Source: Chrysomallon squamiferum
Taxonomy: Eukaryota > Animalia > Mollusca
Assembly: GCA_012295275.1 (NCBI GenBank)
Contig: CM022673.1
Span: 16,678,001-16,742,000, forward strand
Length of the DNA: 64,000 nt
Direction of reading: 5' to 3'
Shown here: positions 1,744 through 61,100 of the stretch, one piece after another
How positions within the stretch are numbered: position 1 is the stretch's first letter
Layout: each line of letters starts with the position of its first letter
The notes under the pieces: generated by a model
The model's input: only the letters and a program-made list of their open reading frames with translations
What the model was told of the DNA's origin: nothing
Database searches by the model: none
Made by a program: the position numbers and the translations under genes

Positions 1744-4700
1744 GATCCAGACAAATTTTTGACAGAACTCCATGATGTTAAGACTATGGAAGGTGCGCCC
1801 TCAGTCCGCATGTCGTGCACTTTCTGCAAGCCTAATGCCAAGCTCAGTTGGCTGAAGAACAAAATGGAAATTTTCCATGGCTACAAGTACCATATTGAAA
1901 ACAATGACAAAGATTACACTCTTGAGATCATGAATGTGAAGCCAGAGGATGCAGGAAAGTACACTTGTCTTTGCAATGACTGCAAAACTTCTGCTTGGGT
2001 CTATGTAGAAGGTAATTAAGATTCTTATGGTGTATCTCTATGTCAGTCTTGGTTTAATATGTATAATTTTTTTTTTTTTATTACTGATACAGAAGATAAC
2101 ATAAATTTGTTTAGATGTTTTTTTCCTCCAGTCTTAATATTTTTATTTTCTATATGTATATAAATACAGTTTGTTTGTACATTCATTTCAATCTCAGAAT
2201 GTTATTTACTTTCAGCCAAAGAACCAGAATACTACTTCACCCAGAAATTGCCTCAGCATTATGAAGTATGCCGCAAGAAAAATGGAATGCTAGAATGTTT
2301 TCTCTCTGATTCTAGAGCTCGAGTGAAATGGTACAGAAAGGGAGAACCTCTTGAGGTTAGTTGTAGTCAATTTTAAATTTTAATAAAAATTTGTAAAGAA
2401 CGTTCAGTCTTGGAACAAAACAATTATTAATTATATCCTTTATGAAATATTCCTGGGGACATTTTGAAGATCCAGAGAACTGTGACAGATGGATGTGGAG
2501 TTTTGTTTCACATCCTGGAGACTTTACCTCTTGGCAAATTGTGGTGTTATAAGACCAGTAGATTATTTCTTCAGTCTAATCCTCTAATACACTGACAAAC
2601 TGCAAAGGTTTTTCAGGATGTAAACTTAACAAACCTTGAGGTTAACAAGAAAATCAGTAATAAACCAAAGTTCTATGTGTTTGCAGTTGTAAATAGTCTT
2701 ATTTGATCAGTCAAACTTCATAAATTATGCAAAAGTACATTACTGAAAAAAATTGTTGTCATTACTAAAAGAAAATAATGAAGTCACAAACAGATAAATA
2801 TATTTATTTATAAAGAAAAAATATTTATTATAACTGTAATGATTTTATTTCTTTAAGTATTTTAATTACATGAATCTATTTAATACTACTACTACCTCTA
2901 ATAATAATTTGAATTATTTCTTTTAATATACTTGTGCATATATGCAAAATAAATAAACTATATTTAACTAAAATAATAATTTAATAATGTATTATTATAT
3001 GTAAATAAGCTTTCATGAGTATTATCTATTTTTAATTTCACTTATAAATAATAAACAGCCTTTTTATTTAATTGTAGCATTTTTCTTTAATGCCTGTTTA
3101 TAGGGATGTAAACGATGAGAAAAAATTAATCTTTTGATTTATTGGTATTTTTATCATTAATAAAATTGTGAAAAAAAAATAATTTAGGCTAAAAAAAATA
3201 CTACTAATAAATATTTTTTTCTAATTAACATTAATTATCTGAATGTGGGCATTTATTATTATTATTATTATTATTTTTTTTTTTTGGCCAATAAAGATAT
3301 ATTTGTTACAATAATTCAATGAAAGTTTATCAGTCAATTCTTCCACTAGATCAAAAAATATTTTTACTTTCATAATGAGTTCTAGTATTGTGTAAGCTAA
3401 ATATTATCACCTTTCATGGCCAACCCAAATCTTTTTCAAGCCAGACATTATCACCATCAATGTAGGTGGATATTCTTATAATTTCATCAGGAATTGTTTG
3501 TATTATTGGCTGCTGGTACACTTCAATTCTTTGAGGACAATCTTCTTTGTGATGTTTTGAATGATATCGTTTGTATCTGTCGTAATCATCAGCTGACCTG
3601 TACCTTCTCTTTGATTTCTTTTGTCTCTGTTGGAAATCATCAAGAAATGGGAAGCGACTAGCAGGGTAAGAATGTGATCGCTTTCTTTGTCTTCCCCTTT
3701 CTGTGTATATCTCATCTATCAGTCTAAGAAGAGCCTCATCTTCAGCTAGTAATAATGGTTTGTAGGGAAATGAGTTCTTGCTGTGTTTCTTCTTCTTTCT
3801 CTTCCACTTGCTGTAAATGGGATCCAGGTCCTCAGCTCCAGGTTTTAAAACATGTCCACGTTCTGATGGTCCCAGCCGTAATTTTTTCTTTCCATAGAAC
3901 CATTTCAGAAATGTGGCCACTGATGCTAGACATCCAGATGGTAGTTCTTTATCCTTCCAGAGTATCTGTAAAATACATTTTATATAGGCATATTTTCCTA
4001 TACTCATCTTTCTTTCTTATATTCTTTCATATTTTTTCATTTCTCTCTCTTTCTCTCCCTGTCTGTATTTTCCAGAAACCTATTGCATATCAAGAGTAGA
4101 TATATTATTTAATGACTAAATACAATTTCTGATTTCTGCCTAGAAAAAAAATAGTGGAGTCTGTTTTACATATTTTTCTCTATCTGTAAGTTAATATACT
4201 GACCTGTTTTATTTCTGAAAAATTTGGTTTCAAAGGTATTCTTAGTTTGACCATCATCTTGTCAAAGAGGATGAATGTAACATTGTATGAAGTTCTTGGA
4301 CGCAGGAAAATAGATGATCTGATTCCTAGTTGTGAATCAAATACATTCATGTTATCATCTTGATCAAAAATTTCCCCAGCTAACATCAATACATGATTCT
4401 TCATGGATAATCCAGTTTTCATTTCAAGCCTCTTTTTGAATGCTCCAATGCTTTCCTGAGCATACACATGCATTTTGTAAATGATGTTTTGAATAGAATG
4501 CACAAACACTGGATACTGCCTTAGTTTCAAGTCAACTTTTGTTTCAAAGTCTTCCACATATTCCACTAACTTATTACTGCTGGAGAGCCTATAGTCTCCC
4601 ACATACATGTCATGAACTGTGGCATTTGGCACTCCTATCTGTTCCAACATTTCCTTAACCACTTTAACTTTGCGGTTAGGACTTACTTTGAGAATTTCAG

Positions 4701-7700
4701 TGATTCCGTTACCTAAACGAAATGTTAGTGGAATTCCAAACATTACATCAGGGTCCTTTTTAGCCTGGGATACATCCATTAAGACAGTGGGAGACCTTGA
4801 TCCATAGTGGCCTATTGTTTCTGAAAAATCAAGTGGCAAGTCATTACTGTACAGGCTGATAATATTGACAGCTATACCAGTCAATCCATGCAGTTTGAGA
4901 GCAACTGTAGACCACCTGTCAAGCTGTGAAACTTTTATCATATGCACCTTGTCTTTGGTTTCTACTACAGGTACTTTCTGCATTTGGAGCTTATGATATA
5001 AACCAATAGTTGAGAGCTGTAGAATATCACCATCATCAATATTGTAGTATCCCATGCAGGTGCTCCAGTTGATGACTGTGGTGCCATGGTACAGGACAAG
5101 CGTGTGTTTTGGCAGATACAGTTCAAAGAGAGACATTATATCAGGTGTGTTCCTTGTGACAGTCCTTCGCAGGACAGTCCAAATGATGTTCATACCAGTC
5201 ATACAAGGATCAATGTATAAATGATAGGTACTACCCCAGAATGTTTCAATATGTACCAGAGTATCGTACAGAATGTGTAACATGACAAAAACAGTTCCTC
5301 TAGGATTTATTCTGTACTCAAACAAATATTTGTCATTTTCCATTGCTTTGTCTTTGTACAGCAGATCTATCCTCTCTGGTGAAAGACCTCTTTGTTCTTG
5401 TAATTCAGATTTCAGCTGCATCACTGTCATTGACAGATCAATATCCATTTCAAACTTAAGATTCAGTTGTTTAATCTCAATATACACATTCTGTTTGTAG
5501 CGTGGCAGAATTAATATTGCTGATCCAGGTTTGATTACATAAAATTGTGAAATATCTACAGGAATTTTTTGTCCAGGTTGCAGCACTGTTAGTTTTTCCA
5601 CTTTGTAATTAAAGTCCAGTCCTGATTTGGCAAAATGGATGACAGATGCAAGTGTATCACCCAGTACTGGTGTGAAAATAGCTGAGGTGTCTGGAGTTTT
5701 ATATGACCACAGGACCAGCTGTTGACCAAGCACACTTTCAAGGTTAACTTCACCAAGGAGTAACTCATCATCAGGACGGAAATCAAATTCCTCACTGCTG
5801 ATGGAAAGAGAATCTGGGCTGTCTCTGTAATTTGGATTATGTTTGGCAAGTTCACGAAATATCTTGTCTTCCTTGGACTTGTATCTGTTTCCTTTGAATT
5901 TTTCATATCTCTGAAAATGGTACAGTAACAGTTACTAAAATGAGGAGAAATAAACTGAGATATTTTTTGATATGGGAATGAAAGAAAACATTCAAACATT
6001 GAAAGTGAAATAGTTATTAGATCTGGAATATGAATACTTAGTACTTGCCATTACAACCTTAATAAATTTATACTGCAGACTTCTTTGACCTAATAATATG
6101 GTAACACTAAAATAATTATTTGTTTACATAAATAAATAAATAAATAAATCGGACAAGTAAGATATGATTTTGATTTAGTGGATAATTTTGAAAGCATATA
6201 TATTATAATTCTAAAGAAAAATGTTAGTTTAAATATATTTATTATGACAAAAAAAAATATTTTGATCTAGTAAATGTAGTATTATTATTATTAAACTAAT
6301 TAAAAGATATTTACAAAAGACTAACCTTATCAAAAACCTGTCTTCCTCTAGGATCTTTGAGTTCTAATGGCTTGTCATGATAAACTCCAAACATGTTTTC
6401 TTTTTGTTGATTTTTTCCATTTACTTCAAAACATTATAACCCAAGACATGTTGTTTTCATACTTAAAATAAACAATCCCCACAGTATATTCCTTTCTCTG
6501 GTTTTTTCCAAACAAACAGCTATTGCTGTAATTTTTAAAATCACAGAACCAGTAGTGAAGACAAATTTTAGTCTTCTAAAATCCTTTGATTAAATAAATC
6601 CACTGTAATAAACAACATAAAACCAAACTGGACGGCCATATTGGAAATGGGTTGCCAATGTACACATTATGTAGACTAGGTAGATATTTTGTGTTATTTG
6701 AACAACAAACAGCTAAAAAAGAAAATCTATTCTTTTCACCACTGAACGGGTCATCAAATGTTTTCTCATTCATGTATTCAACCGGTTGTATGAAAGAGAT
6801 CAAGGATCACTGTTCATTATTCATAAGACAGATAAAAGTTTTTTATTTGTCTATTCATGACTTTCCACCAACACCGATATCTTTCACAAAAGCATTATTC
6901 TTGACTAGGGTGTAAGCCATGTTTTTATGCTTAGAATCAGAATAGTTTACTTAATGGGTTGGGTTTCGTGTAGACTGTACAGTGCTTAAAGCAAATTACA
7001 TTATGTAATTATTTTCCCCTGCTTGTATTTATATTTTGAAATACAAGAAATGTTTATAACACAACCAGTGACTTGAATGCTTTTCTTTTGGTTTTATTTG
7101 TGACAGAACATTTATTACTATTTTTTATTTTTTATTTTTTTTGTGTGTGTATCAGACTGAGTCTCAATAGTAGATAGCTTGAGATTATAAGACTTACATG
7201 ATCAATAATTCTTTGTGCACTGCTTGGAATATTGCCTGTTCCAATAAGTGCTTCACAACATATTATAATTACAAAACTATATTATAATTTTTGTTTATCA
7301 AAAGCTTTTTCACATGTTTTTATTTTTTTATTTCATACAAAACGATGCATGTAAAAAGTGCATTGCTACAACAAATCGTTAAAACAACCTCATGATTATA
7401 GAAATGTTTATATATTAATACCTAGTAGTCTTTAATATTAACAAGTATATAGATGTCATTAAACAAACATTTGTTATTCACATATTTATTGAAAAGAACA
7501 AGTTGTTTTGTTTATGTTGAATGAAATAATAAACAGACATTAATTTTAATTATTTATTTGTTTCAGTACACACCAGGCAAATATGAAATTCAGAGACGAG
7601 AAAACCGTTGCATTCTGAGAATTCTTAATGCAAATGCTGAGGATGAAGGTGAATACAGCTGTAAATGTGGTGAAGCTGAAACTAGATGTGATGTCTATGT

Positions 7701-8898
7701 TGAAGGTATAGTTTTTTTGTTTTTTATATTCTCATAATAAAGATGTTATAACTCAGTTTAAAAGAATTTGTCAAGGGCTTTCTCAGTAACAGCATCAGTC
7801 CTTCTTAGAATATACATTGGGCTATTTCTCCGTTCCAAACAGTGGCTCAAAATGTTTGTTAAATATATTGCTATTGGAAGAGATTGCAAGATTATTCATC
7901 TTTCTGCTTATTAAACATTATAAAATGAAAATGAAATGTGATAATATTTAAAATTTACAAAACTGTTTTTTGTATTATTTTAAACTAATACAGAACCAGA
8001 ATGGCTTCTCATGAAGAAATTGGATGATTTTCCATTTTTAAATTTATTAAACATTATACAAAAAATTAATAATGACATCAGTATTTAAAGATTTTACGAA
8101 ATTCATTTTGGTTTATTTTAAACATAAATTTAGAACCAGAATGGGAGTTCATGAAGAAGCTGGATGATGTAGAAGCTGTTGAAAGGGAAAGAGCCATGTT
8201 TGAGTGTGATGTTAGTGACCCTGAAGCAGATGTCACTTGGTTCAAGGAGGAAAAGGTGTGCTGCACATACAATTCAACATATTTCATGCTACTGAATTGG
8301 GTTTTTGTTTTAAACAGTTTAACAGCAAATTAACTTTTTATATTATTTTAAACATTTTGATTAAACATCTTCAAAAATCAAACAAAGTAAATTTAAAGTG
8401 TTTTATATATTTCTGTGTGTGACTGTGTATATGTATGATTAAATTAAACTTGAATATTTAAACCACTCTAATATTTTATTTGCTGTTTATTTTAAATATC
8501 TGAAACAATAATGAATTTAATATTTCTCATTCATATATAGAATTACGTTTTTTTTCTTCTGCTTAATAACATTGGGTATGAAGCTTCTGCTTTTTGAAAC
8601 AAAGCCTTTCTTTGTTAAGAGACATGTACACATAATGTGTATCTTTCATGTTCAAGACCTTACTCTTTCAATAAAAGTATATTGAAAATTATTTATACTA
8701 TTTTAATTATTGCTAACTAAAATATAATAACTAACAGTGTTAAAAATTTACACAGATTGTTTATGAGCATGTTTTTTATATTAATTTGTGTTTAGAACAT
8801 AATAAAATAATTGCATGTTATTGTTTTCTTAGTAATTTTATCTTCCATAAAACAATATTATAATTTTTGTTTTTGTTATTTATTTATTTATTTATTTA

Positions 8899-37400: not shown

Positions 37401-40400
37401 ATGGTTTTAATAGCTACTCATAACAGTTTAATAGCTGCTGATACATAGTCTTGTAATCTATTAGATTACACTTTTCCTTCAGTCGCTTAAAATTAAGCAT
37501 TCATCATCCATGTCTAAAGTAAAGATATTGAAAATCTACTTCATAGTTTATTTTTGAAAACTGAAAAAAAACAAAGATATATATTTAATAAATTAATGAA
37601 TTTTTAAGATACAAAAAGTATTATTTAAACTTGTGCTAGTCTGTCCTGAGATTTATGAATAAAAAGTTAACCAAAATAAAAATTTAAAAATTTAATGTAA
37701 TCTTATATTGCATATTTCAGGTACAGAAATGACACAATATTGACTCAGAGTATTAAGTTTATGCAGAAATATTCTGGAAAAGAATATGAACTTAGGATTA
37801 GTCGTGTCAAGGTTGATGACAAAGGGGAGATCACTGTTCGAGCAGAAAACTCTTTCGGCAGAAAGGAGGAGAAGGCAAATCTCCTTGTGGAAGGCAAGTT
37901 GAAGTTATAAATGATTCAAAATAATTAACATTATTGCTGTTTGTTATTTATGCTATATGAAAATCAGACAATTTCATTTATTTACATGATAATAATTATT
38001 AAAATATCTTTACAGCCAGCCCTGAAGCACCTAAGCCTCCTAGCAGGGAAACTACACCTCTTAGAAGGTTGGTATTTCAATACAACATTACAATAATGAA
38101 TTTACTGAAAGAATGAACTAAGGAAATAAGGATTCTTGACATCTCAAAGTCCTGTTTTAGGACATTTTGAAAATATACTCCTGATTTAATGTATCCAGGA
38201 AACAAACAGATAAAAATTTATTCTCTTTTTTCTTAATTCCATTAAAGAAATCTTGTTCCAGTAAAATATAGTTAGGATTAAGTCTCTTTTTGACTTGTCT
38301 TGGACAGAACTGTATGTTGAATTCAGATATGGTGTCAAGCTCATTTAATGGTTCTCATGTGATGGAAAGATCTAAAAACCAATTTTGTGTTTGTAGGAAG
38401 AGAGAGCTGGAGGAGATACAGTTTGAGAAACCAGTTGAAGATGAACCTCCACAGTTCAACTTTGATCTGCGACCCCGGGTCATCCAGGCTGGCTCTGACT
38501 TCAAATTAATCTGCTGTGTGAAAGCTCATCCTCCACCAAAGGTAAGCAAATCAGTTTCATATTTAGTTCAAGATTACAAATTTTCAAAATTAATTTATGT
38601 ATTTACCTGTTTTTTGCTTAACATTATAAACACTTTGTTGATTATGAAATTATTTAATACTGGGTTTTTTTGCTTTTTTTTCTATTTCAGTTACTTAGTT
38701 ATGCTGATTAAAAGTAAAACAAATCCCCTTCTGTCTCTCCACAAATTGTTTTCCCACATTTTTCACTAGTTCTTAATTGTGTATTACCAGGTGAAGTGGT
38801 TTAAAGACAATGAGGATATCACAAACAGCACACACTACAGTATTCAGTATTCCTATGGTATTTGCTCAATAGAAGTCCAGAATGCCAAGGTGTCTGATAG
38901 TGGCAAGTACACCTGCAGTGCCACCAACCCTCTTGGAGACCATGAAACAAGTACCCGTGTCATTGTTGAAGGTAAGGAATCAACATACTTAGATTTAAAG
39001 TATATTAATGCTTATATATTGTATTTTGTTCTTGTTATTGTTGACAGATACTATTTTTGCTTATACTGTTGCCTGTGTTGAAGGTGTGTACATAAATAAA
39101 TTTTGTTAGACAATAATTGAATATTGTCTTAAAAAAATAGCATGAATTGGAATGAACTAAGATATATGAAACAAATGTTAGCATTGCTTTTTAATGTGAA
39201 AACGTAATAGCATATATTTATTATCAGTAAATATACACCACAGGTACTGTTTTATTAGTAATGAACTTCTTATGCCTAATTAAGTGGAGATACTTCCAAA
39301 ATGGCTAAACATTTTAGTCTGTATGCATGCAAAATTGCAAAACATTTTAATCTTTCTATTCTGCTACAATTTACTTTTATGTCTCCAAATAGGTTTTTCT
39401 GTTTTAGAATTTGTTTTTGATAAATATTAATTTCAGATCGAGTGCATTCAAAAAAGGAACAGGAGTCGATGTCATCAAAAACCACTTCAAGAATGGTGAG
39501 AAGAACAAAATCTGGAGCCAACATTGAAGAATTTTCTAGCTATGAAGAAACCTCAACAAAAAAGACAACTCGACGTTCAGGAAGAGAGGAGATAGAAGAA
39601 TCTTCAACTAGATCAGAGAAAAAGAGTGAGAGAAAGTTTTAACGAGTTTTTAATGATTTATTTCCTTCATTTCATAGAACTGATTTATAAGTGCAAACTC
39701 ATTTGACTTGCAGTAATGAAAAACAATTCTGTTACTTTTTATATAAAGAATTAGTTATATATCACTTGAAGTTAGTTTATTTATTCATTGGTACAATGAG
39801 AAGATTTTAATATTTCTGGAACATCTTTTCTGTTTAAATCTTTCAAATCAGAAAGAATAAAGAATGTAATGTAGACTTTTGATTTTATTATGATTATTAT
39901 TATTGTTATCATTATCATCCTAATTATTGTTATGGTTGTTGTTGTTGTTGTCATTATGAGAAAGTTTACTTTTTATCTCTGCCCAGAACGAACTGAAGAA
40001 CAGGCACCAACTTTCTCTCAGAATTTATCACCAGTAACTGTAACCGAGGGTGACAGACTTCAGCTGACATGTACAGTGTCTGGAAAACCAGAACCTACTG
40101 TTGAATGGTTCTTGAATGGCCAGGTATAATATAAAATTGAACTAATAAATAAACTTTAAAATTTCAGGAAACATCATGGTGGTCATATTTTCTTTAAATT
40201 GGTACCAGTTAGTCAAACTATTACAAGTATATATTTGTCTTAGGAATTTTCTGTTATTTAATTTAAAAATTTCTTGTTTTAGATGTTGAACTCTGATGAT
40301 ATTGTAACTCTGAAATACAGAAATGGGGTTGCCACACTAGAAATAGCAGAAGTAATGGTGGATGATGAAGGAGATTATGTGTGTAAGGCGTCAAATCCTG

Positions 40401-43400
40401 CAGGAGTTGCATCAACAAAAGCAAATGTTATTGTAAAATGTAAGTAAAAATATTGTTTATTCACCAGTAATTGAGTTCATCATCATTTAACTATATCTCT
40501 TCATATATTTTCAAAAAAATATTTAACAAATTCCTTTTTCAGCTAGATAATTATTTGTGTGTTAGATTTCCTTTTGCATTTTCCTTCCATTTTAGAATCC
40601 AGATTTTTAAAATTTTACAAAGAAACATACCCGTTCTTTTTTGTTATCTCAAATGTTAACAAAAACATTGGTTTAAAACTGAAATATTGATTTCTTTAAT
40701 TTGTTAAATATTGAGGTGGGTAGCAATAAGTTTTGAACTACAGTTATGAGTAAAAATATCATAAAATAAAAGATTATAGTTTTTTGTTTTGTTGTTTTCC
40801 AAAAAGGTATTGTTGTTGTAATTATTTATAATCTATAGAATCATGTGTCTGTTAAAACTGGAATCATAGGAAATCATTTCTTTAATGCAGATGTTTTATT
40901 AATAAAACATTCTCAAAACAACCAGAAATTAATTACATACAAATTCAGTGAAAAAAATATCCAAAAAATAAAATCAGAAGTAAAATTTCAGATATAAATG
41001 AATTCTTATTCCTAATGAATCCAGTCTTAAAGGACACTCAAGTAGTATATAATTTTCTTGATTTGCTGTGATCCAATTTTTTTTTTTAACTCCACTTCTA
41101 TTACAGATTCAGATGAATCGCCTCTATCATCCGATACTGAAATGCAATGTAAATAAATCTCATTATTATTTGTAAACATCATCATTGCTGTGTTGGTCTT
41201 TAGTGTCAGAAAGAATAAGGCTTAAATAAACCTCAGCATTAAAAATAAATCATTGACTTCTGAGTATCAACAACAACAAAAACAATAATAAATAAAAATG
41301 AATGTATATATTAGAACTAATATCTTTGAGATTTAAAAACAATGAAAACAAAACATCAGTTCTTCATTATTTTTACACTTAATATCTATTATAATTTATA
41401 ATGAAAAAAAATGTTTTGTGATACAGGTGATTTCAACAAAATATTGATTTGAAAGTCAAAAATATTCTAAGTTTTATATTTCATATAACAAGACTTTAAA
41501 CACAAGATCACTTTCTATAGTTCTCTGTTCACTAAAGATATCAACATAGCAATTATTTATTAATATATGTTTAGTTTTATTAACTTAGGTTTACAGACTA
41601 ATTTCTAATTATGTCTGGTTAAGTATGGAGTAGAATGCATGTCACATGTTTACTTCATATTTTAGATGTTGTGAGTAATCAAAGATGTTGTAATTAAAAT
41701 TGTGATTAATATCTCATTTAACTCATTATCTGCACATTGCTGTTTCTGTAAATGTTGTCATTAAGTATGTGATTAGTGTTTTAGCTTCAGCATCACAGAT
41801 GACTTCATTGTCTATGACTGGTGTTGAGATCATCTTCCAGCTATATGAATAACTGAACTTACAAATTGCTTCTTATAGATCTCGTGAAATCACTATGTAC
41901 AAAGCTGTCATTATTTATTTTAAAATATTATGGTTAAAGTTGCCAGATCAGGTTTGCTGGCTTATTTAATGGTTATTATTTATTTGTTGTAAAAGCAATA
42001 ATTTGTATTTATTTATTTATTTTTAAAACTTCCCTGTAATTTTGAATTATACGTTTTATTGACTGTGTTAGAATAAAGGTATTATTAAATATGAAACAAA
42101 CACATACACACAAACACAGTACATATTAACACATATGTAGTAGTAGTATGTATAGATGTGCATGGTGACTAGATAGATTACCAGTAGCTCCTTAGTGCCT
42201 GGTTTCTTTCAGCTGATATAACATCATCTGCTACTGAAACCAAAGCAGAAATGCCAGTAGCAGCTGGTGAAACCCTCACATCCCAACCTGTCCCAGATCC
42301 ACTCCAGTCTTCCTCCCTCCTAGAACCAAGTGAACCAGTAGAACAGTCCTCAAGTGAACCATCTGCAAGTGAACAACCATTAAAAATACCACCTAGTGAA
42401 CCACCAGTTGAAAAACCTGCAAGTGACACACCACTTGAATCCTCTAGTGAACCACCTGTAGAACCATCTGTTGGTGAAACCCTTCAAACACAGGAAGTGA
42501 AAGATGTCCCACAAGATGCCCCAGCCACAGCATAATGTAAAACATCTTTGATGTTTGTTAATCCTTACAATTCTTCTTTTGGGCAGTTGTTCATTTAAGT
42601 GTTTTGCTATTCTTTTAATCATTGATTTTTCTGTTAATATTTCTTGGAGGATAAAAATTTAAACAAATACAGTCATATCTATAATTTGATAATACATCAA
42701 GAAATACAAGTTAAAAAAATAATAATAATAATAATTAAATAAATAAAAACAAAATAATAATAATAATAATAATTTAAGACCACTGAATATAACTAGGAAG
42801 AATAAAATGTTTTCAAGCACAATCAGATAGTTCCCAGCCATTACCGCAGTCAGTAAAATTAATTTTTAATTTTTTTAAACTTCAGTGAAACATTAAACTA
42901 CAGCTACATTGAAAAGGATTATCAGTCTTTTGAAAAATAAATATTCATAATGATAATTGATAAAATTGTAATGTATTATTTGTTCTGTTTTAAAAAATTC
43001 ACTGAATACACTAAATTTCTAAACATGATAAAAATGTAATTTATTGTCTTAAAGTAAGTTTTATTTTTTTTATTTTTTATTTTTTTATTTGGGGGGGGTG
43101 CATTGGTTTAAAATTACAGATCTTCCACCTGCATGGTTTGTTTCCATTGAACTTGATGTTTTTGTCTGCATGAATTTAAAATATATATGTGTATCATTTT
43201 AGTCCATTCTAACCTGTTTACTGACTAATTAAATATCTAAGGAATGTAAAGAAACAATATAATCTGTTTTGAAAATCTTTCTCGACCCAAAGCTCTTTGA
43301 GTTTTTCCTAACAATGCTGACGACTGATATTTGCTGCCTTTGCAATGCTGTGCCCACGACTGGTCACCTTCTGCCTTTTTTGCCATTTGACGCAGTTCTT

Positions 43401-46400
43401 TTAACATTTATGTAAGTAATATTTCTCTTAAGCTTTTATTCATTTGCTTTAAAGCTGAATTTGCTCTCTTTTTTTTTCCATTTATACTTTTTTTAATAAC
43501 TTTTAATTATAATTTTTGTGTTATTTTTATTTTATAATACTGTTGCTGAGATTTGTTCTTTTAAAATAAAGGGTAAAATAAATGGAATAATGTAAATTTA
43601 AACCTAATTCTCTTTAAAATCTTACAAAAATTTAAAAAGTAATAAATTTAAAAGCTTTATTTAAAACTGTATGAATACTGATTTTACTAAACTTTTTATG
43701 TTTAATGTAGTTTTATTACATGGTATATTTCATCATAATAGTTTTTCTGATTCTTTTTATTATATTTTATAATATTTAATGATATCAAAAGCATTTATCA
43801 AATTAATTGTTTTTAAAGAATAATAATCAATCAATAGATACAGAATTGATAGGTTTTCCTTTTATTGCTTCTAATTTTCAAACTTTTTTTCAGTTAAAAT
43901 AATAATTTCATTAGGAACAAAAAAATGGGCCAACATTGAGTTTATTTTATACTGTCATTGTTAGCAAAGTAGGTCCTTGTGTATCAAAGCAATCGTATGA
44001 AGTATACAGAATGTATACAGACACTGGCAAATGTTGTTTTTCAAAACTATTCTACACATTAATTCACAATGCATTAAACTTGTTTTTATTTTTATTTCAG
44101 CTTAATATGGCTGCTGCTGTGGTGAAGATCACTGGATAGTTCAGATGTTTGTGACAGTGAAGAGATGTGAATGAATTTAAAATCAAATGTTGAACTTCTT
44201 CTTTTAAAAAAAATATCTGTACTCTTTTTTATTTATTTGTTTTATATAAGCAAATGAGACCATTTTCTTGCTTGAGAAAACTGGATGTTTGTCAGTGATA
44301 TCTTAAAATTCTCAGTATTGCTGTACAGAAGAATATTGAGTCATATCCAGCAGTATTTTTGTGTTTGCCCTTCTGAGCAGCAGATTTTTCAACAGTGTGA
44401 GCCTTCTGTATATACATTAAGTTAATTACAAGTAACACACATAGTTAGAACTGATACATTACAGTGACAGTTCAAGTTAAACTTACCTTGCTTTTTATAT
44501 TTATTTCAGTTTTGGTGCTCAGTTTATCATATAATTTATTGTTAATATTTATTTTTTTCATTTTTAAGATATTGCATATTAATATGTAGTCCACTGAGTG
44601 GTAACAGCTGAGAGAGAGATTAAAGTTAGATAACTAGGTGTTTTATTTAACATAATTGTAAGAAATAAATGAAGTTAATCGACTGACTATTGAAACTGTT
44701 AAACATACTGCCTCTGATAACTAAGTTGTATGACTTAGCCGAGCAGTTGTCACTGCTGTGTGTTTTACAAGATTTCATTGAGAATGACATGCTTAAATGA
44801 TACTAATAAATATGTACAGTGTTGCTTCTACTGCTGTAGTTTTAGTTCCAGTCCAAGACAAAATGGCCTTTTTTCAGCAGTTTTTCCAATCTTGTACTAG
44901 TTCTGTTACAACATTATTTAATGTCATACCAGTTTTCCCAGACAGCTTTTAATTTATAAAGTCATCAGATATGGTTTAAAAACAGCCACCATGCTTTCTT
45001 TAAAAACAATAACACCTGAACCTCATTATTCCTATAGAAATCAGAACCTAGATTTCAGGATTTCTGTAGCAATCAGTTCATGAAACTAGTCAAGAATTAT
45101 TTATATTTATTTATATATAACAGAGTGTGTATTAGAATGGAATATTTATAATACAGTATTTATTAGTCTCAAATATTTATGATAACTCCTACAACTTGCA
45201 TGATGATAGTGGTGCAAATTTTGTTAATGCTTCTTTCATTGTATTGTATTTACAAAAATCCTTCTCTCCTGAACTCAAACATCTGTAAAACCTCAAGCAT
45301 TTAATCACTGACCTAATTCTTCACAATGTTTTTCATTCAAAGATTAAAAGACAGTAATAACCCCAAAACAATCTTTATCTGTGTTTCCTTTTTTCTGAAG
45401 AAACTGGGCCAGAGGAATGAATTTGTAAAAAACCGGATTACTAGAATAACTTGTATAGTTAAATTAATAAACTGGTTCCTGTACATGTTGTCTCATGTGT
45501 TCTTATTGTTGATTATTACTTTATCAGGCTTCAGTGCTAATTTTAGCAAATAAACAGATATCTTACTACATGATATTGTTGTTTACTGCAATCTCTTTTA
45601 GTCCACAGATACTTCTGTTAAGATGTATAATTTATAGGTTACTCAGAATTGTCTTTAGTTAAAAATCCCCAAAATGATTTTTATCTTTTTAAACCACTAC
45701 TGACATTTTTAAAATAAAGATACCTATATTGGATTTTAAAATATAGAATATTAGATCACAACTGTAATAATATAATTACACTGTCCAGTTAATCTTCTGA
45801 GTGAAAGAATTCCTAGAGCTGGATAAGGCCTTTTTTGTTTTTGTTTTACTGTAGTCAAAAAATTGTTTGATTACTTGGAAATGGGTTCTCTTGATATTTA
45901 TCTAACTTACCTAGTGGGTAGCACACTAGCTTAAAGATCATTAGGTAATGCACCATTGAAATCTTAACAAGTTTCAAAAGTTGATATTAATAGAGAAACA
46001 TCATTGTGGAGTTTCCTTATATATAAATTGTATTTGAAATTTTTATATTGGTCATTCATATCATCTTGAAATACAAGTTTAAAAGCTGATTGAAGAAATA
46101 AAAAAACAACAAAAAACACACAACAAAAAAACAATGATGTTGGCCTTGTTTCCTGTTTAAAAATGTTTTCCTGACAATCCTGGGTCTTCAGTCAAGAGAA
46201 GACCTTCCAAAGATGTTGTTTCTCTTCTTTGCATAGATTCAACCTTTGTAGATATTGTTTTGATGTTGTTCACAGAGGTATAGTATGTTTACTTAATTAT
46301 ATTTTACATTTTCCATTGACATCTCCATACCAGTGATCAAGAATTTTATTAAAGCTTTAAGATTCTGACATGACTAGTTTTTCTTCACAATGACAAATTA

Positions 46401-48976
46401 TTTTTAATATATAATTGATAATAACTTCTAAATATTTTGTTTATATATAATTATATTGGTGGATTATTATTATTATTATTATTATTACTTTATTATTTTG
46501 CAGTTAAAGAATTTTGGTATTTTAGTATTTTATGTTGTTTACTTTGTGTGGTTAGATAGTTGTCTAGTAATAGTTAATAGTTAAATGTAGACAAGCATGG
46601 CATGAACACACAAATCTCAAGATACAGACATACATGTCACATCTTTCAGGTTAATGTAAAAAATTTATGCTGGGAATAATATATTTCATATGGAACATTT
46701 TATTAAAGATGTAACTGAAATTTATTTATTCATTTATTTATTTATTATTATTTTAATTTTTTTAATTTTTTTAATTTTTTTGTTAACAAGATATCTGTTA
46801 AAAAGAGTTGTGTCAACTTAGTACATTTATCAAATGTTTTTTGAAATTACAGCCAAAACAGCCCAGCCTGCACCTGAACATGAAGAAAAAATTAAAATTT
46901 CGCCTCCACGGTTTATTGAACACTTGAATGGACAAATAGTTAACGATGGTGACCAGGTGACACTGCAGTGCAGAATAGCAGGTGAGACAGCTAAACTGTG
47001 ATGTGTGAACTCTGAGACACACTGTACTTGTGCAAAGTGCAACAGAACATAGGATCAGTTCTTATTCAGTTCCAGACTGTAACATTTATTGTTAAAGATA
47101 GTATGACTGGTTTTACCTTATTATAATCATCATTATCCTTGCCATTATTATTATTATCATGTTACCATCATTATCATCATAAATATTATCATTGTCATTA
47201 TCATCATCACCATTATTTTTTTTTTCACTTATTCACTTAAACTAAATCTTTATCAATTATAATTTTTGTATAATTAATTATATTTAGGCAAACCTGATGT
47301 TACATGGTTAAGAAATGGCAAAGAAATAAAACAGTCTGAAGACTTCAGATTTGAGAGTGCCGGAGATGTGTACAAACTAGTGATTGCAGAAATTTTCCCA
47401 GAGGACAGTGGTGTTTACACATGTGAGGCAGTCAACAATGGCGGCTCGTCTGTCAGTCAGTGTTCAATCTTTGTACAAGGTAACAGTTTGTGTTTCTAAC
47501 CTGCTCAATTCCTTCTAAGCTTAGTAAAACATGTTTAAGTTAACTAGGTCTGTTTGAAATGTTGTTGTTATAATTATTTATAATATAATGGCTGGCAGGA
47601 AGCATGTACATCATAAACAAATACTGATTTAAAAAATATTGTGAAAAATTATAAAAATGTATAAACAATTTTTGTGGACAAACCCCCCCACAAAAAATCA
47701 GTAATAAGTGTCTGAAATCTTATAGCCATTAATATTAAAATATTTAATAAGTTAATAAACAGTTAATGACTCGATAAAATGAGTTAACAACTACAACAAT
47801 AATGAATTACTATAATTTATGTTAAAATAGTTTTGAAATATTGTTGTTTTATTCAGATCCTGAAGAAACCCCAGGCTGCCCTATATTCTCCACATTCCCC
47901 AAGTCACTGAATGTGGATGAGGGGAGCCCTGTCAAATTTACCTGTTCTGTAGAATCAGAATCACCTGTAACAGGTAAAATTTAGTGACTTTTTGTCACAA
48001 ATTGTTGAAAGATTCCTCCAGTGAAGTTAAACTCCATAATTACTAACTCTGTTGTATTTTAGTGTATTGATATTTCTTTTTTCTGTTTTAAATATGCAAA
48101 ACATAAAATTTTGGATTTCATTATCACACATTCAATATAAATAATGGATTGTAGCATGTTATATAGGTACAATATTAAATACCTATTTTTATTAAATATA
48201 TACACCACTTTAGTCAACAACCACCATGATGATTTGAATTAAGATCCTCAATTTTTGAGTTTAATGTATAGCATGAAAAGTAGTAATTAAATTAACAGCT
48301 GATTTTGTGCTTAGTGCTAGGATGACATTAAACATTAATTCTTTTTGCTCTAATTGTTTTGTATGACAGTTTCCTGGAACAAAGGAGACAGAAAAATAGA
48401 AGACACAGGCCGTTTCAAGTTTGAACAAGATGACAAAAGTTTCTCATTTGAAATACCAGCTGCCCTGTCGACAGACACAGGGACATACTCTGTCAGAGCT
48501 GAGAATGAGGCTGGCAGTGCCTCTTGGACCTTTTCACTGGGTGTTGCCATGGGAGAATCTGGAGGAGAGGTAGATGTACAAGAATTATTGAAATCTGTAC
48601 AGGTGAGTTAAGGGAATGTTGTTGTTGTGTTTAATTAGTGATGTTCAGTCTTTAAAGTTATTTTGCTTCTGGTTTATAAAGTGTTATAAAATTTTGTTTT
48701 TGAAATGTAGAATACATTGCTGAAAAGCAGTAATTTGGGGAAAAATGTTGTTTTTGTGGTGTGTTTTTTTTAAATCATATTAAATTAAGAATAACATGAC
48801 AGCAGAATAGAACTGTCTGAAAATAATTAAAACAAAAGTTTAAGAAAAGCAGCCAAGTTATGATTGCATTATAGAAGGGTCTTTAATAAAAACATCTAAG
48901 TTATTAAATACACAGCATCATATAAACAGAAACTATCTGTGGAGATTAATTAAATTTAAATTATGTTTTTCAGTAA
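1744..48976 (+). CDS. unc-22: Twitchin (unc-22/projectin-like giant muscle Ig/Fn3 kinase), 5'-partial, 73 traced coding exons
   Basis: Phase-consistent chain of spliced exons (one +1 frameshift in exon 23308-23460; one GC donor at 37894) encoding 18 I-set Ig domains, 15 Fn3 domains and a twitchin-type kinase. The Ig/Fn order matches the Mytilus twitchin pattern as I recall it. Stop TAA is at 48974-48976. The 5' end lies upstream of the window. Confidence 0.96.
3414..6394 (-). CDS. Nested antisense gene: tandem ubiquitin-like-domain protein with a basic C-terminal tail (775 aa, 3 exons)
   Basis: Exon 1 is 6394-6326 (ATG in gaaaacATG context, in-frame upstream TAA at 6436-6434, [23 protein letters not shown], donor gttag). 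Exon 2 is 5910-4204 (ttttcag acceptor, 569 open codons, donor gtcagt). Exon 3 is 3965-3414 (ttttacag acceptor, ends in TGA). Both introns are phase 0. Repeated ubiquitin-like motifs include [42 protein letters not shown] and [30 protein letters not shown]. Confidence 0.85.
7908..8168 (+). repeat. Diverged tandem duplication (about 135-140 bp) spanning an acceptor and exon start
   Basis: ttattaaacattata...ag/aaccagaatgg..tcatgaagaa..tggatgat occurs at about 7908-8028 and 8044-8168. Confidence 0.8.
8991..9047 (+). CDS. Candidate twitchin cassette exon (57 nt, [19 protein letters not shown])
   Basis: Acceptor ttgctttcag and donor GAG/gtaccc. Phase 0-0, matching the host intron 8256-10883. No stop codon. 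Confidence 0.55.
11125..11233. repeat. Compound microsatellite (GA)n-(GGAC)n-(CA)n
   Basis: Directly visible in the sequence. Confidence 0.95.
12614..21193 (+). CDS. unc-22: Twitchin: Fn-Fn-Ig-Fn-Fn-Ig-Fn-Fn-Fn block
   Basis: Exons 12614-12754, 13103-13261, 13421-13572, 14107-14257, 14419-14546, 16258-16429, 16644-16749, 17224-17417, 17846-18018, 18222-18351, 18597-18745, 19169-19304, 19509-19616, 19740-19931, 20101-20205, 20486-20680, 20894-21193. Repeated W..P..DGG.PI.GY.VEK and YxFRVxAxN Fn3 motifs. Confidence 0.94.
15406..15426 (+). CDS. Candidate twitchin microexon (21 nt, IVGAKAG)
   Basis: Acceptor tttgttttttcag and consensus donor gtaagt. Phase 0-0, matching the host intron 14547-16257. 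Confidence 0.65.
21485..32959 (+). CDS. unc-22: Twitchin: Ig-Fn2-Ig-Fn3-Ig2-Fn2-Ig2-Fn block
   Basis: Exons 21485-21642, 21923-22046, 22435-22737, 22886-23036, 23308-23460 (contains a +1 frameshift), 23851-23972, 24249-24414, 24585-24667, 25162-25381, 25681-25869, 26188-26301, 26815-26919, 27100-27297, 27466-27577, 27812-27984, 28151-28339, 28703-28792, 29090-29262, 29599-29728, 30107-30409, 30793-30904, 31021-31193, 31473-31760, 32247-32412, 32802-32959. Confidence 0.93.
23535..23665. repeat. (TA)n microsatellite, imperfect
   Basis: Directly visible; it produces the spurious YIYIYI ORFs. Confidence 0.95.
28341..28406. repeat. (TTA)n microsatellite starting inside the splice donor
   Basis: AAAG/GTTATTATT... 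immediately after exon 28151-28339. Confidence 0.95.
33325..36954 (+). CDS. unc-22: Twitchin kinase domain with N-terminal linker and C-terminal autoinhibitory tail
   Basis: Exons 33325-33390, 33611-33704, 34066-34269, 34706-34847, 35334-35533, 35752-35904, 36213-36258, 36559-36636, 36852-36954. Catalytic motifs are intact ([34 protein letters not shown]). The tail [42 protein letters not shown] is characteristic of twitchin. Confidence 0.97.
37222..48976 (+). CDS. unc-22: Twitchin: five post-kinase Ig domains and linkers
   Basis: Exons 37222-37339, 37721-37893 (GC donor), 38016-38067, 38397-38541, 38791-38971, 39437-39625, 39987-40123, 40283-40439, 46853-46981, 47288-47479, 47857-47973, 48370-48602 and a stop-only exon at 48974-48976. 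Confidence 0.9.
41107..41148 (+). CDS. Candidate alternative twitchin exon (42 nt, [14 protein letters not shown])
   Basis: Acceptor ctattacag and donor gtaaat. Phase 1-1, matching the host intron that starts at 40440. Open frame. Confidence 0.5.
42213..42535 (+). CDS. Candidate alternative terminal twitchin exon, Pro/Ser/Glu-rich (PEVK-like)
   Basis: Acceptor gtttctttcag in phase 1, about 107 open codons with repeated SEP/EPP motifs, and TAA at 42533-42535. AATAAA occurs near 42738. Composition is coding-like within an AT-rich intron. Confidence 0.7.
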
Positions 48977-58124: not shown

Positions 58125-61100
58125 AATGTTACTACCACCTGTCATCTGAAGTTTCCCCAGTCTGTACCAGTTGGCAGTGGGCTGGGTGAGGTCGAAGTCT
58201 CGAAGTTTCAGATACAAAGCACCAAGAAAATTGTTTTCTCCTAGAACCTGGTCCCACACTGTCACCTGCAGAGTGCGCCCGTTTATTTCTTCTTGTGATA
58301 TCCTGTACTCAATCTGTACAAATAAGTAAATAAATATATAATTAAATAAATAAACAAACAAGTAAAATGTGTAATTAAAATAAATAAATATATAATAAAA
58401 AAAGAAAAACCCAAATAAAATAAATTAATAATATGAAAGGATAAAATAAAAAAAAAATAATAATAATAAATAAATAAATAATTTTTAAATCCTAATACAT
58501 AAATTTAAATATCTTTTCATATCATAAACAAAACCACAAACAGACTTTTAAAAATTATGATGTATACATCTTTCAGAAACAACAGGGAAAAAACAAAAAC
58601 AGACCACTTCATTGTATGTTGGGTGACTTGTATTTTTGACAACTTTTGTTTTTCTCTTTGTGTGTTTTTCTGGGTCTGGAAGAAGGTAAGTCTTCACATA
58701 TGGACTGGGAAGATTGGAACCATCAACCTGTAAGGAGAAAGCTATAGAATTACACAGACAAAAACTGCATTAAAGTATATGCTAATATAAATGTACTGCA
58801 TTGCAACACAGCCACAGACATAAACTGATCTAACAATACAAATTTGGAGTAATTCATTTCCTGAAACAATTTTAAAAATGTGTTACACTTTGCTATGGGA
58901 ATTTTTATTAATAATAATTCTCAAAGTCATAATAAATTATAATATAACTAATATTAAATCTTACTCTTTGTTTGATGCTAATGAATAAACAAATATATAT
59001 TTAATTTAACTAAATAAGATTTATTATTCAAAATTATGTATCAAACTAAACCTTTTTCTTTTTTTCTTTTTTCTTGGTATGATGAAATTAGAAAGGGAAC
59101 TTACTCTTTTTAATTACAAACAGAAATATTTTCAAAATTTAGACAGTAAAGTCTGTACAATCCTCTCTTACTCTCAGACTGAGCGAAACAAATACAGAGA
59201 TTAACAGAAACGTTTACAAACCAAATCTTTGCAGTGCATGATCATCACTTGAAGTGAGCCCTTGTTGTAGTGAAGAGAAAGTTTTATTTGTCCCTGGATT
59301 CCTGAGCTGTTGGTGGGTGGCTGTAACACTGGTTCTGAAAGTCAAACATTTTTATTTCATTTCGAATTATTACAATATGTACTGATTTTGTATTTAGAAA
59401 CTGAAACAGCACTCTTTCTTTTCTTTTTTTTTTTTTTTAAATACTTTACTAGTTTTATAATATAATGTGTACTCCTACACTCAGTAAAGTATTGTGAGTT
59501 ATAGACTGAGATATAATTGTATTTACATATCAAAATAGTCGTGTCTTCTATAGGTTAATGGCATAACATGAATATATTTTAATATTAGCAAATCAAATGT
59601 GCCATAAATAAGTCAGGCTTAAATCCATTTTTGCACATTAACATACACACATGCATGTAAAATAGAAGAGTTGTCTTACGTTAAATATATTTTAAAAAAT
59701 GATTTCTTTGGAAAATAAATATTGAAATTTTGTAACAAAACCAAAGGTTTTCAGTATTTACTTTCAGAATTAAGGTAAAGAAGTTATATATATAGTGTGT
59801 GTGTGTGCGTGCGTGTGTGTGTGGATAAATACATAGATAGATAGATATAGATACAGATTTAGATAGAGATATATAGATATAGATTTAGATAGAGATATAT
59901 AGATATAGATAGATAAATAAAACATAAGATGTACCTCTGAGTTTCAAAACATTCAAGTTTGTACTTCCTACATCCTGCTCGTCTCGGAGAAGTGGGTGGA
60001 AGAAAGTGTAAACCAGGTCACACTGAAATTTAACACAATAAACATCATACTCCACACCATTTGCATTTCTGTTTAGCATCAATAAACACTGTGCCTATCC
60101 AAAACATCACTAATAAAGTTTGACAAAATTTTAATTTTTATACATTTCTAAAGAGCATTCAATGTTCTTGCAAAGAACCCAAAACTGAATAAATCTATCA
60201 AATGTTCTCAAACTTATTCATAATTAAAAATGGCTGTCTTGATTCTGATAAATTTTATTGCAGCAGTTATTTAACAGTAGTTGACATTTATTTTTATTTT
60301 TTAACATAAAGCTGAGATATTTTAAATAATATTTTCAAGAAGAAAAAATATGAAGGACTAATTTTGATAAAAACATAGTTACACTTATTTTGCATTTTCA
60401 TTAATTTTGTAAATTTATATATACAATATACACACACACAAAACAATAAAAATGATAAAATACAAATAAATTTACATCAGATATTTCAGGCTGTTTAGAT
60501 CGCAGTTCTCGTAGAAAATGATCTATTTCTTGTTTCCGACTCTCAGCAACACTTCGCACATTGCTTCTCCCGAGTACCAGCCTAAGTAAACAAATTAAAC
60601 ATTTACAACACTAACAACAACATAAATATTTTTATTCTGTACCATTAAAAGAAAATATCAAAATATAAAACAAACAAACAAACAAATAAAAATATTTTTA
60701 ATAAAATATCCAATAAATAATAGAAATTATTTTTAATCAGGGATTCATAATTAAAATTTTAATAAATTTTTGCCTCATCTAAATTTGTAACATAAACATA
60801 TTAAACTTACCTCGTGGAGAAATTTGGCCAGGTCATCAAAGGAAACATCTCGGCCATTTTGTCTCTAAATTCGACAAACTCAGAAAACTGTCGAAAAATG
60901 TAACTAGCAACTTTTTGGTCTTCTCTTTCAACCTGAACTATGTAGAGCTGCAAATAATAATAATAATAATAAGAATAATAATAACAATAACAACAATTAC
61001 AACAACAACAACAACAACAACAACAACAGTAAAAATAACTAATAATAATAATAACAATAATAATAATATTAAAAACAGAAAAAAATAAGAATAGCAGTAA

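Follow-up and report, generated by a model that had tools for sequence, protein, structure and literature searches.

An antisense gene inside a twitchin intron

The 64,000-nucleotide stretch analysed here as a whole, hereafter the window (Chrysomallon squamiferum, assembly GCA_012295275.1, contig CM022673.1, positions 16,678,001 to 16,742,000), carries on its plus strand a twitchin gene, recognised by a kinase exon whose best match in the Protein Data Bank (PDB) is 1KOB (E 8e-35) and by additional immunoglobulin (Ig) and Fn3 exons. One twitchin intron, 2356-7566, encloses on the opposite strand the whole coding sequence of a second gene, whose product is a tandem array of ubiquitin-like (UBL) units and is the subject of this report. 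RNA evidence for both genes consists of assembled contigs from four runs of one study, which show neither strand nor level. The host intron is spliced in contigs of three of the four runs (depth 39-97), with a loose end in the fourth, and it divides a single Ig domain, as the original prediction had proposed; the second gene is thus an intron-nested antisense gene.

The nested coding sequence comprises three segments (6394-6326, 69 nt; 5910-4204, 1707 nt; 3965-3414, 552 nt), all with GT/AG ends and in phase 0, and its translation runs for 775 amino acids to one terminal stop, exactly as first modelled. The G+C content of the second and third exons is 38-39%, compared with 21-28% in the introns and flanks. 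The junction 6326/5910 is joined by one contig in one of the four runs (X4, depth 3.3; CT..AC on the plus strand), and since this contig extends to 6633, the first exon has a 5' untranslated region (UTR). RNA was expected to confirm both nested junctions and does so for this one; the other, 4204/3965, is joined in none of the four runs, an absence from contigs that proves nothing. It is accepted because the third exon is homologous to the C-terminus of the Gigantopelta aegis orthologue (135 of 186 residues identical, 73%) and because 22 of the 23 relatives in alignment A1 extend past the exon 2/3 point with an (L/I)W....P.G-like motif. Unspliced contigs also occur: one from run X5 carries both nested introns, no joined form being seen there, while two low-depth contigs from X2 run over the ends of intron 2 and X1 behaves likewise at intron 1. 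These may represent host pre-mRNA, DNA or intron retention. Much of exon 2 is free of contig coverage in the four runs. Six coding variants, three synonymous, two conservative and one in the tail, leave the frame without stop or frameshift. The amino-acid-changing variants, found in runs of the same organism code, lie at 3872, 4485 and 4782 (one in the tail and two conservative in the core). Rfam gave no match within 2300-7700.

Tandem ubiquitin-like units and their predicted arrangement

Both profile and structure place the nested protein within the ubiquitin fold: it matches PF00240 with an E of 2.8e-21, and the same profile is matched in 25 of 26 family members. An AlphaFold2 model of the Gigantopelta protein, built on a 26-sequence alignment, has a predicted local distance difference test (pLDDT) score mostly above 80 over residues 89-622 and below 50 at both ends; its predicted template modelling score (pTM) is 0.65, with 231 of 780 residues below 50. 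Between predicted disordered ends, it contains six complete units with a beta-beta-alpha-beta-(beta)-beta pattern and one half unit, numbered U1 to U7 (Table 1). Compared singly, U2, U5 and U6 reach Z scores of 10.9-15.2 to known beta-grasp folds. The prediction of about six to seven tandem ubiquitin-fold units is therefore upheld as to their nature by profile, model and structure comparisons, and refined to six and a half as to their number. The last unit does span the exon 2/3 junction, as had been proposed, but it falls short of a complete beta-grasp: after two strands and one helix, the model has a second helix where the remaining strands would be, and a separate model of the U5-U7 fragment from a metagenome orthologue (L001) shows the same. 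This strand-strand-helix-helix assignment comes from modelling. The fragment model has a pLDDT of 89 and a pTM of 0.61, a combination that would fit an arrangement depending in part on the other units.

Table 1. Features of the nested gene and its host intron in the window (rmsd, root-mean-square deviation; aa, residue numbers in the protein; L001, metagenome locus carrying an orthologue)
Feature	Position	Strand	Basis
Exon 1: 23 codons from the ATG at 6394, preceded by a 5' UTR reaching at least 6633	6326..6633	-	X4 RNA contig covers 6326-6633 and joins 5910; N-termini of Gigantopelta and Haliotis proteins match
Intron 1, 415 nt, GT-AG, phase 0	5911..6325	-	joined in 1 of 4 RNA runs, unjoined in X5
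Exon 2, 569 codons: acidic leader of low confidence, then U1-U6 and the beginning of U7	4204..5910	-	open reading frame, homology, model
Intron 2, 238 nt, GT-AG, phase 0; no counterpart in L001	3966..4203	-	splice signals and homology; joined in 0 of 4 RNA runs; L001 frame open there
Exon 3: end of U7, then 157-aa Lys/Arg-rich (23%) low-confidence tail; stop 3414-3416	3414..3965	-	homology, model; RNA contigs X1 3424-3666, X3 3726-3879
U1, aa 86-160, predicted beta-grasp, conserved Trp (40/41)	5500..5724	-	model secondary-structure pattern, pLDDT 83-91
U2, aa 162-236, most ubiquitin-like; Tyr-Asp at ubiquitin's Gly-Gly	5272..5496	-	PF00240 best stretch; 1UBQ Z 14.4, rmsd 1.4 A, 76 residues
U3, aa 239-326, TFWG hairpin (Phe-Trp at ubiquitin L8-T9), helical insertion	5002..5265	-	second unit on di-ubiquitin 5OE7 (146 aligned)
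U4, aa 332-404, conserved D.W...A.KLHG helix	4768..4986	-	third unit on tri-ubiquitin 7EAO (207 aligned over 166-407)
U5, aa 415-486, GVPNA motif	4522..4737	-	Get5 UBL Z 10.9, rmsd 2.0 A, 76 residues (L001 fragment model)
U6, aa 487-562	4294..4521	-	FAF1-UBX Z 12.5, rmsd 1.5 A, 77 residues; ISG15 C-domain Z 12.3, rmsd 1.9 A, 77
Half unit U7, aa 564-618: two strands, helix, conserved F..W helix	3888..4290 (4290-4204 + 3965-3888)	-	two models, pLDDT 82-93
Twitchin exon upstream of host intron, encoding the first half of an Ig domain	2216..2355	+	RNA joints; both splice sites align with L001 exon
Twitchin host intron, 5211 nt	2356..7566	+	joined in RNA contigs of X1-X3
Twitchin exon downstream of host intron, encoding the second half of the same Ig domain	7567..7705	+	RNA joints, sequence comparison

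The units are strongly diverged from each other, as first noted. In a unit-unit profile comparison, U2-U6 gave 80% and U2-U5 62%, and the other 19 of 21 pairs 12% or less; identities between unit profiles are at most 25% over short matches and 16-18% over 44-60 columns. Orthologous units, in contrast, share a mean identity of 42-50%, with U3 (0.50) the best conserved, tied with U5, and each unit is kept in gastropods, bivalves and a nemertean alike. This difference indicates that the units were fixed early and then kept separately. The repeats of polyubiquitin are homogenised, which is the opposite behaviour.

No unit ends like ubiquitin. Among 41 aligned rows, Gly-Gly occurs near the end of U1, U2, U4, U5 and U6 in none, and near the end of U3 and of U7 in one row each, the U3 case lying in an AGEAGG linker that is not ubiquitin-like; none of the 44 family proteins has a terminal Gly-Gly. 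Indeed, no conserved di-glycine or small-residue end motif follows any unit, so that the ending that marks conjugatable modifiers such as ISG15, FAT10, NEDD8 and SUMO is missing, and the claim that none of the units ends in Gly-Gly holds for all six full units across the family. The spacing itself resembles that of polyubiquitin: U2 and the start of U3 align with it over 88 residues without a gap across the junction, and in the model the linkers at U1/U2, U2/U3 and U5/U6 are 1-3 residues long. Outside the units, the tails of the family are basic (12-28% Lys plus Arg) and fast-evolving, and Pfam found no catalytic domain in the window's open reading frames or in family members.

Four tryptophans, each in a different unit, are nearly invariant: W94 in 40 of 41 rows, W251 in 41, W359 in 39 and W617 in 40. 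W251 and its neighbour F250 (40/41) sit at the exposed L8-T9 hairpin of ubiquitin, and W359 at the buried I23 position. In U2, the hydrophobic character of ubiquitin's binding patch is kept, with Leu at the I44 position in 33 of 41 rows and Leu or Met at the V70 position in 31. The R42 position is Asp or Glu in 40 of 41 rows and the R72 position Gln or His in 33, which argues against plain ubiquitin mimicry.

How the units sit together can be approached through the pTM of the full model. Rough bookkeeping requires a core term of about 0.9, against about 0.24-0.39 if only one to three units were fixed; by this arithmetic, a pTM of 0.65 despite 231 low-confidence residues implies defined relative positions for all units in the model. 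The arrangement as a whole has no match among solved structures (best query TM 0.15), though one may still exist, and the ESM Atlas returned only generic ubiquitin clusters (best scores 0.89 and 0.85, best TM 0.29). A complex prediction of U1-U4 with U6-U7, made without alignments, scored 0.00 and counts neither way.

An old family and a probably old nesting

A search with exon 2 returned 23 relatives. The cluster of the best match contains the RefSeq protein XP_041366546.1 of Gigantopelta aegis (780 aa, 'uncharacterized'), which matches all three exons, with 648 of 774 residues identical over the whole model. Orthologues include 14 named gastropod entries (from Haliotis, Lottia, Patella, Batillaria, Nucella, Babylonia, Lymnaea, Physella, Biomphalaria, Candidula, Elysia and Plakobranchus), two bivalves (Pinctada and Tegillarca) and, distantly, the nemertean Lineus longissimus. 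The gene is therefore not unrecognised, as had been stated: its orthologues are already annotated, as 'uncharacterized' or, for the Elysia marginata and Plakobranchus proteins, mislabelled as 'polyubiquitin'. Literature searches, which had supplements and subscription journals outside their scope, brought up no account of the family or its nesting, and no paper for six orthologue identifiers, which supplementary tables may still list. No whole-length match to a characterised family was found either.

Among the best 150 matches of a profile search of 1.84 billion representatives, 28 match as one stretch and 122 as many short stretches. The range beyond molluscs depends on Lineus, the one named sequence among the 12 most distant full-length one-stretch matches. 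The Lineus orthologue and one relative (P0122, P0191) stand out by very long charged tails, of 754 and 664 aa, and in both of them U2 begins with a short insertion. None of 43 candidate stretches from a viral genome collection, and none of 80 prokaryotic ones, proved related. For phylogeny, 41 core sequences were used, fragments and near-duplicates being left out except for P0051 and P0055; all units are collinear in 39 rows, the other two being fragments. A quick IQ-TREE analysis joins the window's protein with Gigantopelta (support 100), then with Haliotis (99) and all named gastropods (99), and a separate clade holds both named bivalves (100); FastTree agrees. The gene tree tracks mollusc classes and gastropod subclasses, with one sequence per named species, a pattern that fits vertical descent of an apparently single-copy gene.

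The nesting also has a counterpart outside the window. Among 55 candidates in metagenome contigs, L001 is the sole locus found; its orthologue is an open frame of 816 codons, 37% identical to the Gigantopelta protein, and groups with Pinctada and Tegillarca (support 98 in the same quick analysis). Its opposite strand bears two twitchin exons that correspond, at 61% and 60% identity, to the pair preceding the host intron in the window, and both splice sites of the second align with those of the window exon, including the donor after TTGAG. New here is thus an L001 orthologue that lies antisense behind the same twitchin donor, the nested gene converging on that donor from about 1 kb away in both the window and L001. 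Because this bivalve-grouping locus shares the arrangement, the nesting is probably older than the gastropod-bivalve split, provided that L001 is indeed a bivalve. That split is Cambrian. Conservation of the nesting had been proposed as a check on the original prediction, and this locus supplies it. Intron 2 is missing in L001, whose frame is open across the equivalent point; an intron-poor ancestral core would fit a relocated processed or polyubiquitin-like copy, though L001 may have an upstream exon. A protein search with a twitchin exon, among candidates of up to 2000 aa, gave two rotifer fragments only.

Some neighbouring features may be recorded. In L001, positions 246-606, upstream of the nested frame, resemble by eye an interspersed repeat insertion. 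In the window, plus-strand exons continue after the twitchin kinase and two Ig domains (39424-48608), with a Ser/Thr/Glu/Arg-rich exon (39424-39639) followed by further Ig exons, and a Pro/Glu/Ser-rich PEVK-like exon (42188-42535) followed by Ig exons to about 48600; they may form an extended twitchin C-terminus or an alternative end. A convergent minus-strand gene at 58551-61145 has C2-like (58551-58769) and PX-like (60807-61145) exons and, by eye, resembles the end of a class II PI3-kinase.

Interpretation and comparison with known systems

On balance, and with little more than even confidence, the nested gene is taken to encode a non-conjugatable, uncut protein of 6.5 UBL units that acts as a binding scaffold. 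A defined packing of the units is predicted, so that the protein would work as one piece in which each unit has its own job. Conserved aromatics in U1, the U3 hairpin, U4 and the terminal helix could form inter-unit contacts or a binding surface specific to the family, a UBL-binding partner (such as a ligase, a deubiquitinase or a proteasome-associated factor) would most likely dock on U2 with its retained hydrophobic patch, and the basic disordered tail would localise the protein. The origin is probably a domesticated head-to-tail polyubiquitin-like array, whose relocation to the twitchin intron would predate the separation of gastropods and bivalves, the nesting being most likely a frozen accident with no functional link to muscle. 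In a bolder and less probable account, an early mollusc or lophotrochozoan received a copy of the array in this intron; deprived of its cut sites, the copy would have frozen as a rigid 6.5-unit super-domain with a tryptophan-lined surface and stayed in the same intron since the Cambrian: a fossil ubiquitin chain turned into a new structural or adaptor protein.

Several points weigh against this interpretation. The non-conjugatable part of the earlier proposal is argued from the missing di-glycine ends, while 'scaffold' is what remains once conjugation and catalysis are set aside. The packing claim is model confidence rather than measurement, namely one pTM from a shallow 26-sequence alignment combined with approximate arithmetic, and the pTM of the alignment-free Atlas model is 0.31. 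The beta-grasp of U1 is a secondary-structure pattern in the model, and the conserved tryptophans could be core residues instead of a contact surface. In the transcript, the joint between exons 2 and 3 is the one that no run supplies, and expression in the four runs is near intronic background. The age of the nesting depends on one locus whose taxon is deduced from the tree, and whose contig stops before the next twitchin exon and so shows the 5' intron border only.

Among the alternatives, a structural protein of the germ line or cilia, for example of sperm, is unlikely but keeps some appeal: a rigid, possibly self-assembling array with its basic tail on microtubules or nucleic acid, a role that may overlap with that of a scaffold. 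The basic, fast-evolving tails and the incomplete last unit would suit it, as would the low nested-gene signal (contig depth 2-9, a poor measure) in runs where twitchin is abundant; mammalian host/nested pairs are reported to be often co-expressed in testis (PMC11694760). Rather less probable is a protein that imitates a linear (M1) ubiquitin chain or acts as its decoy, uncuttable and bound by canonical ubiquitin-binding domains or deubiquitinases; a ubiquitin-chain mimic was also among the proposals of the original prediction. The U2-U3 spacing equals that of polyubiquitin, linear tetra-ubiquitin chains are the top Foldseek matches and U2 keeps its hydrophobic positions; however, structural alignment gives U2 just 18% identity to ubiquitin, the R42 and R72 equivalents of U2 are changed, the other units are far more diverged, and the rmsd to solved linear di-, tri- and tetra-ubiquitin is 8-19 A, flexible though such chains are. 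These results weaken the idea.

A role linked to twitchin itself, through muscle co-expression and sarcomere protein turnover or through antisense regulation of twitchin splicing, appears improbable. The same intron is used in the window and in L001, and the same mammalian study reports that nested-gene expression accompanies host isoform changes (PMC11694760); against this, the two genes differ widely in contig depth within the same runs, two loci cannot tell selection from inertia, and an intronic gene would be hard to move for purely structural reasons. Still less credible, and in fact very improbable, is a precursor cut into separate UBLs at sites other than Gly-Gly, or a conjugatable modifier: several units have polyubiquitin-like spacing, but linkers of 1-3 residues and the lack of any conserved end motif leave little room for processing, and activation by E1 enzymes requires a C-terminal glycine. 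Finally, the nested, antisense position and thin RNA coverage might have suggested a pseudogene, a transposon remnant or a chance open reading frame, which is ruled out by intact orthologues across classes, spliced RNA, the six variants, the absence of terminal repeats around the gene (repeats within the host intron being AT-rich chance pairs) and the absence of a transposon Pfam match among the window's open reading frames and the family members.

What emerges is an old, apparently single-copy and uncharacterised family of molluscs and relatives, partly mislabelled in databases as polyubiquitin. If the predicted packing is true, it would be a multi-UBL protein that stands alone, with no enzyme domain attached, and would show cleanly how a polyubiquitin-like array becomes an integral protein one unit at a time. 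Sharing of the twitchin intron allows the idea of very old nesting to be tested and provides a synteny marker.

The closest likeness is to the polyubiquitin precursors (UBB and UBC), which share the head-to-tail beta-grasp units and the ungapped U2-U3 junction and give the best sequence and structure matches. The nested protein differs in its diverged repeats (even U2 shares just the 18% noted above with 1UBQ), in the absence of LRLRGG unit ends, and in its fixed count of 6.5 units with an added leader, half unit and basic tail. The five tandem UBLs of the USP7 C-terminal region form an integral, diverged and uncut array of the same general kind, aligned by Foldseek over about 530 columns (E 9e-17), but at 8-9% identity, an rmsd of 34-38 A and in another arrangement, without the protease domain; a weak Pfam match to USP7_C2 is below cut-off. 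The USP7 array is a binding and regulatory platform, in keeping with the PDB titles listed. A USP7-type deubiquitinase is not indicated, Pfam scans of the window's open reading frames and the family members containing no peptidase family and the modelled core being accounted for by UBL units; a word search for family fusions covered proteins of up to 1605 aa. ISG15, FAT10 and the OASL di-UBL are likewise tandem diverged UBLs, the chicken OASL di-UBL being the top VIA match for U2 (Z 14.6, rmsd 1.2 A, 76 aligned), yet they have two units rather than 6.5, and OASL carries a synthetase domain. ISG15 and FAT10, moreover, end in Gly-Gly and become conjugated.

Nor is the lack of Gly-Gly as rare as had been implied: among the 122 other multi-unit proteins in the best 150 profile matches, 28 have none after any unit, and uncut UBL arrays must therefore be common among unstudied proteins. 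These match mainly through U2 and as many short stretches, not collinearly, and belong to other families; P0057, P0070, P0085, P0091, P0126 and others have 15-17 ubiquitin-like units with no Gly-Gly after any. Intron-nested antisense genes are equally ordinary: about 5% of mammalian genes are nested, and relocation into introns is a frequent origin of this arrangement (PMC13343718). Uncut arrays and nested genes are thus both commonplace, and no long-standing question is directly touched yet. The distinctive feature is a family with a fixed count of 6.5 units and no enzyme domain, which has persisted across classes and apparently within one and the same intron; mammalian nested genes are described as less conserved and more recent than their hosts (PMC11694760), whereas the nesting reported here is apparently common to a gastropod and a probable bivalve.

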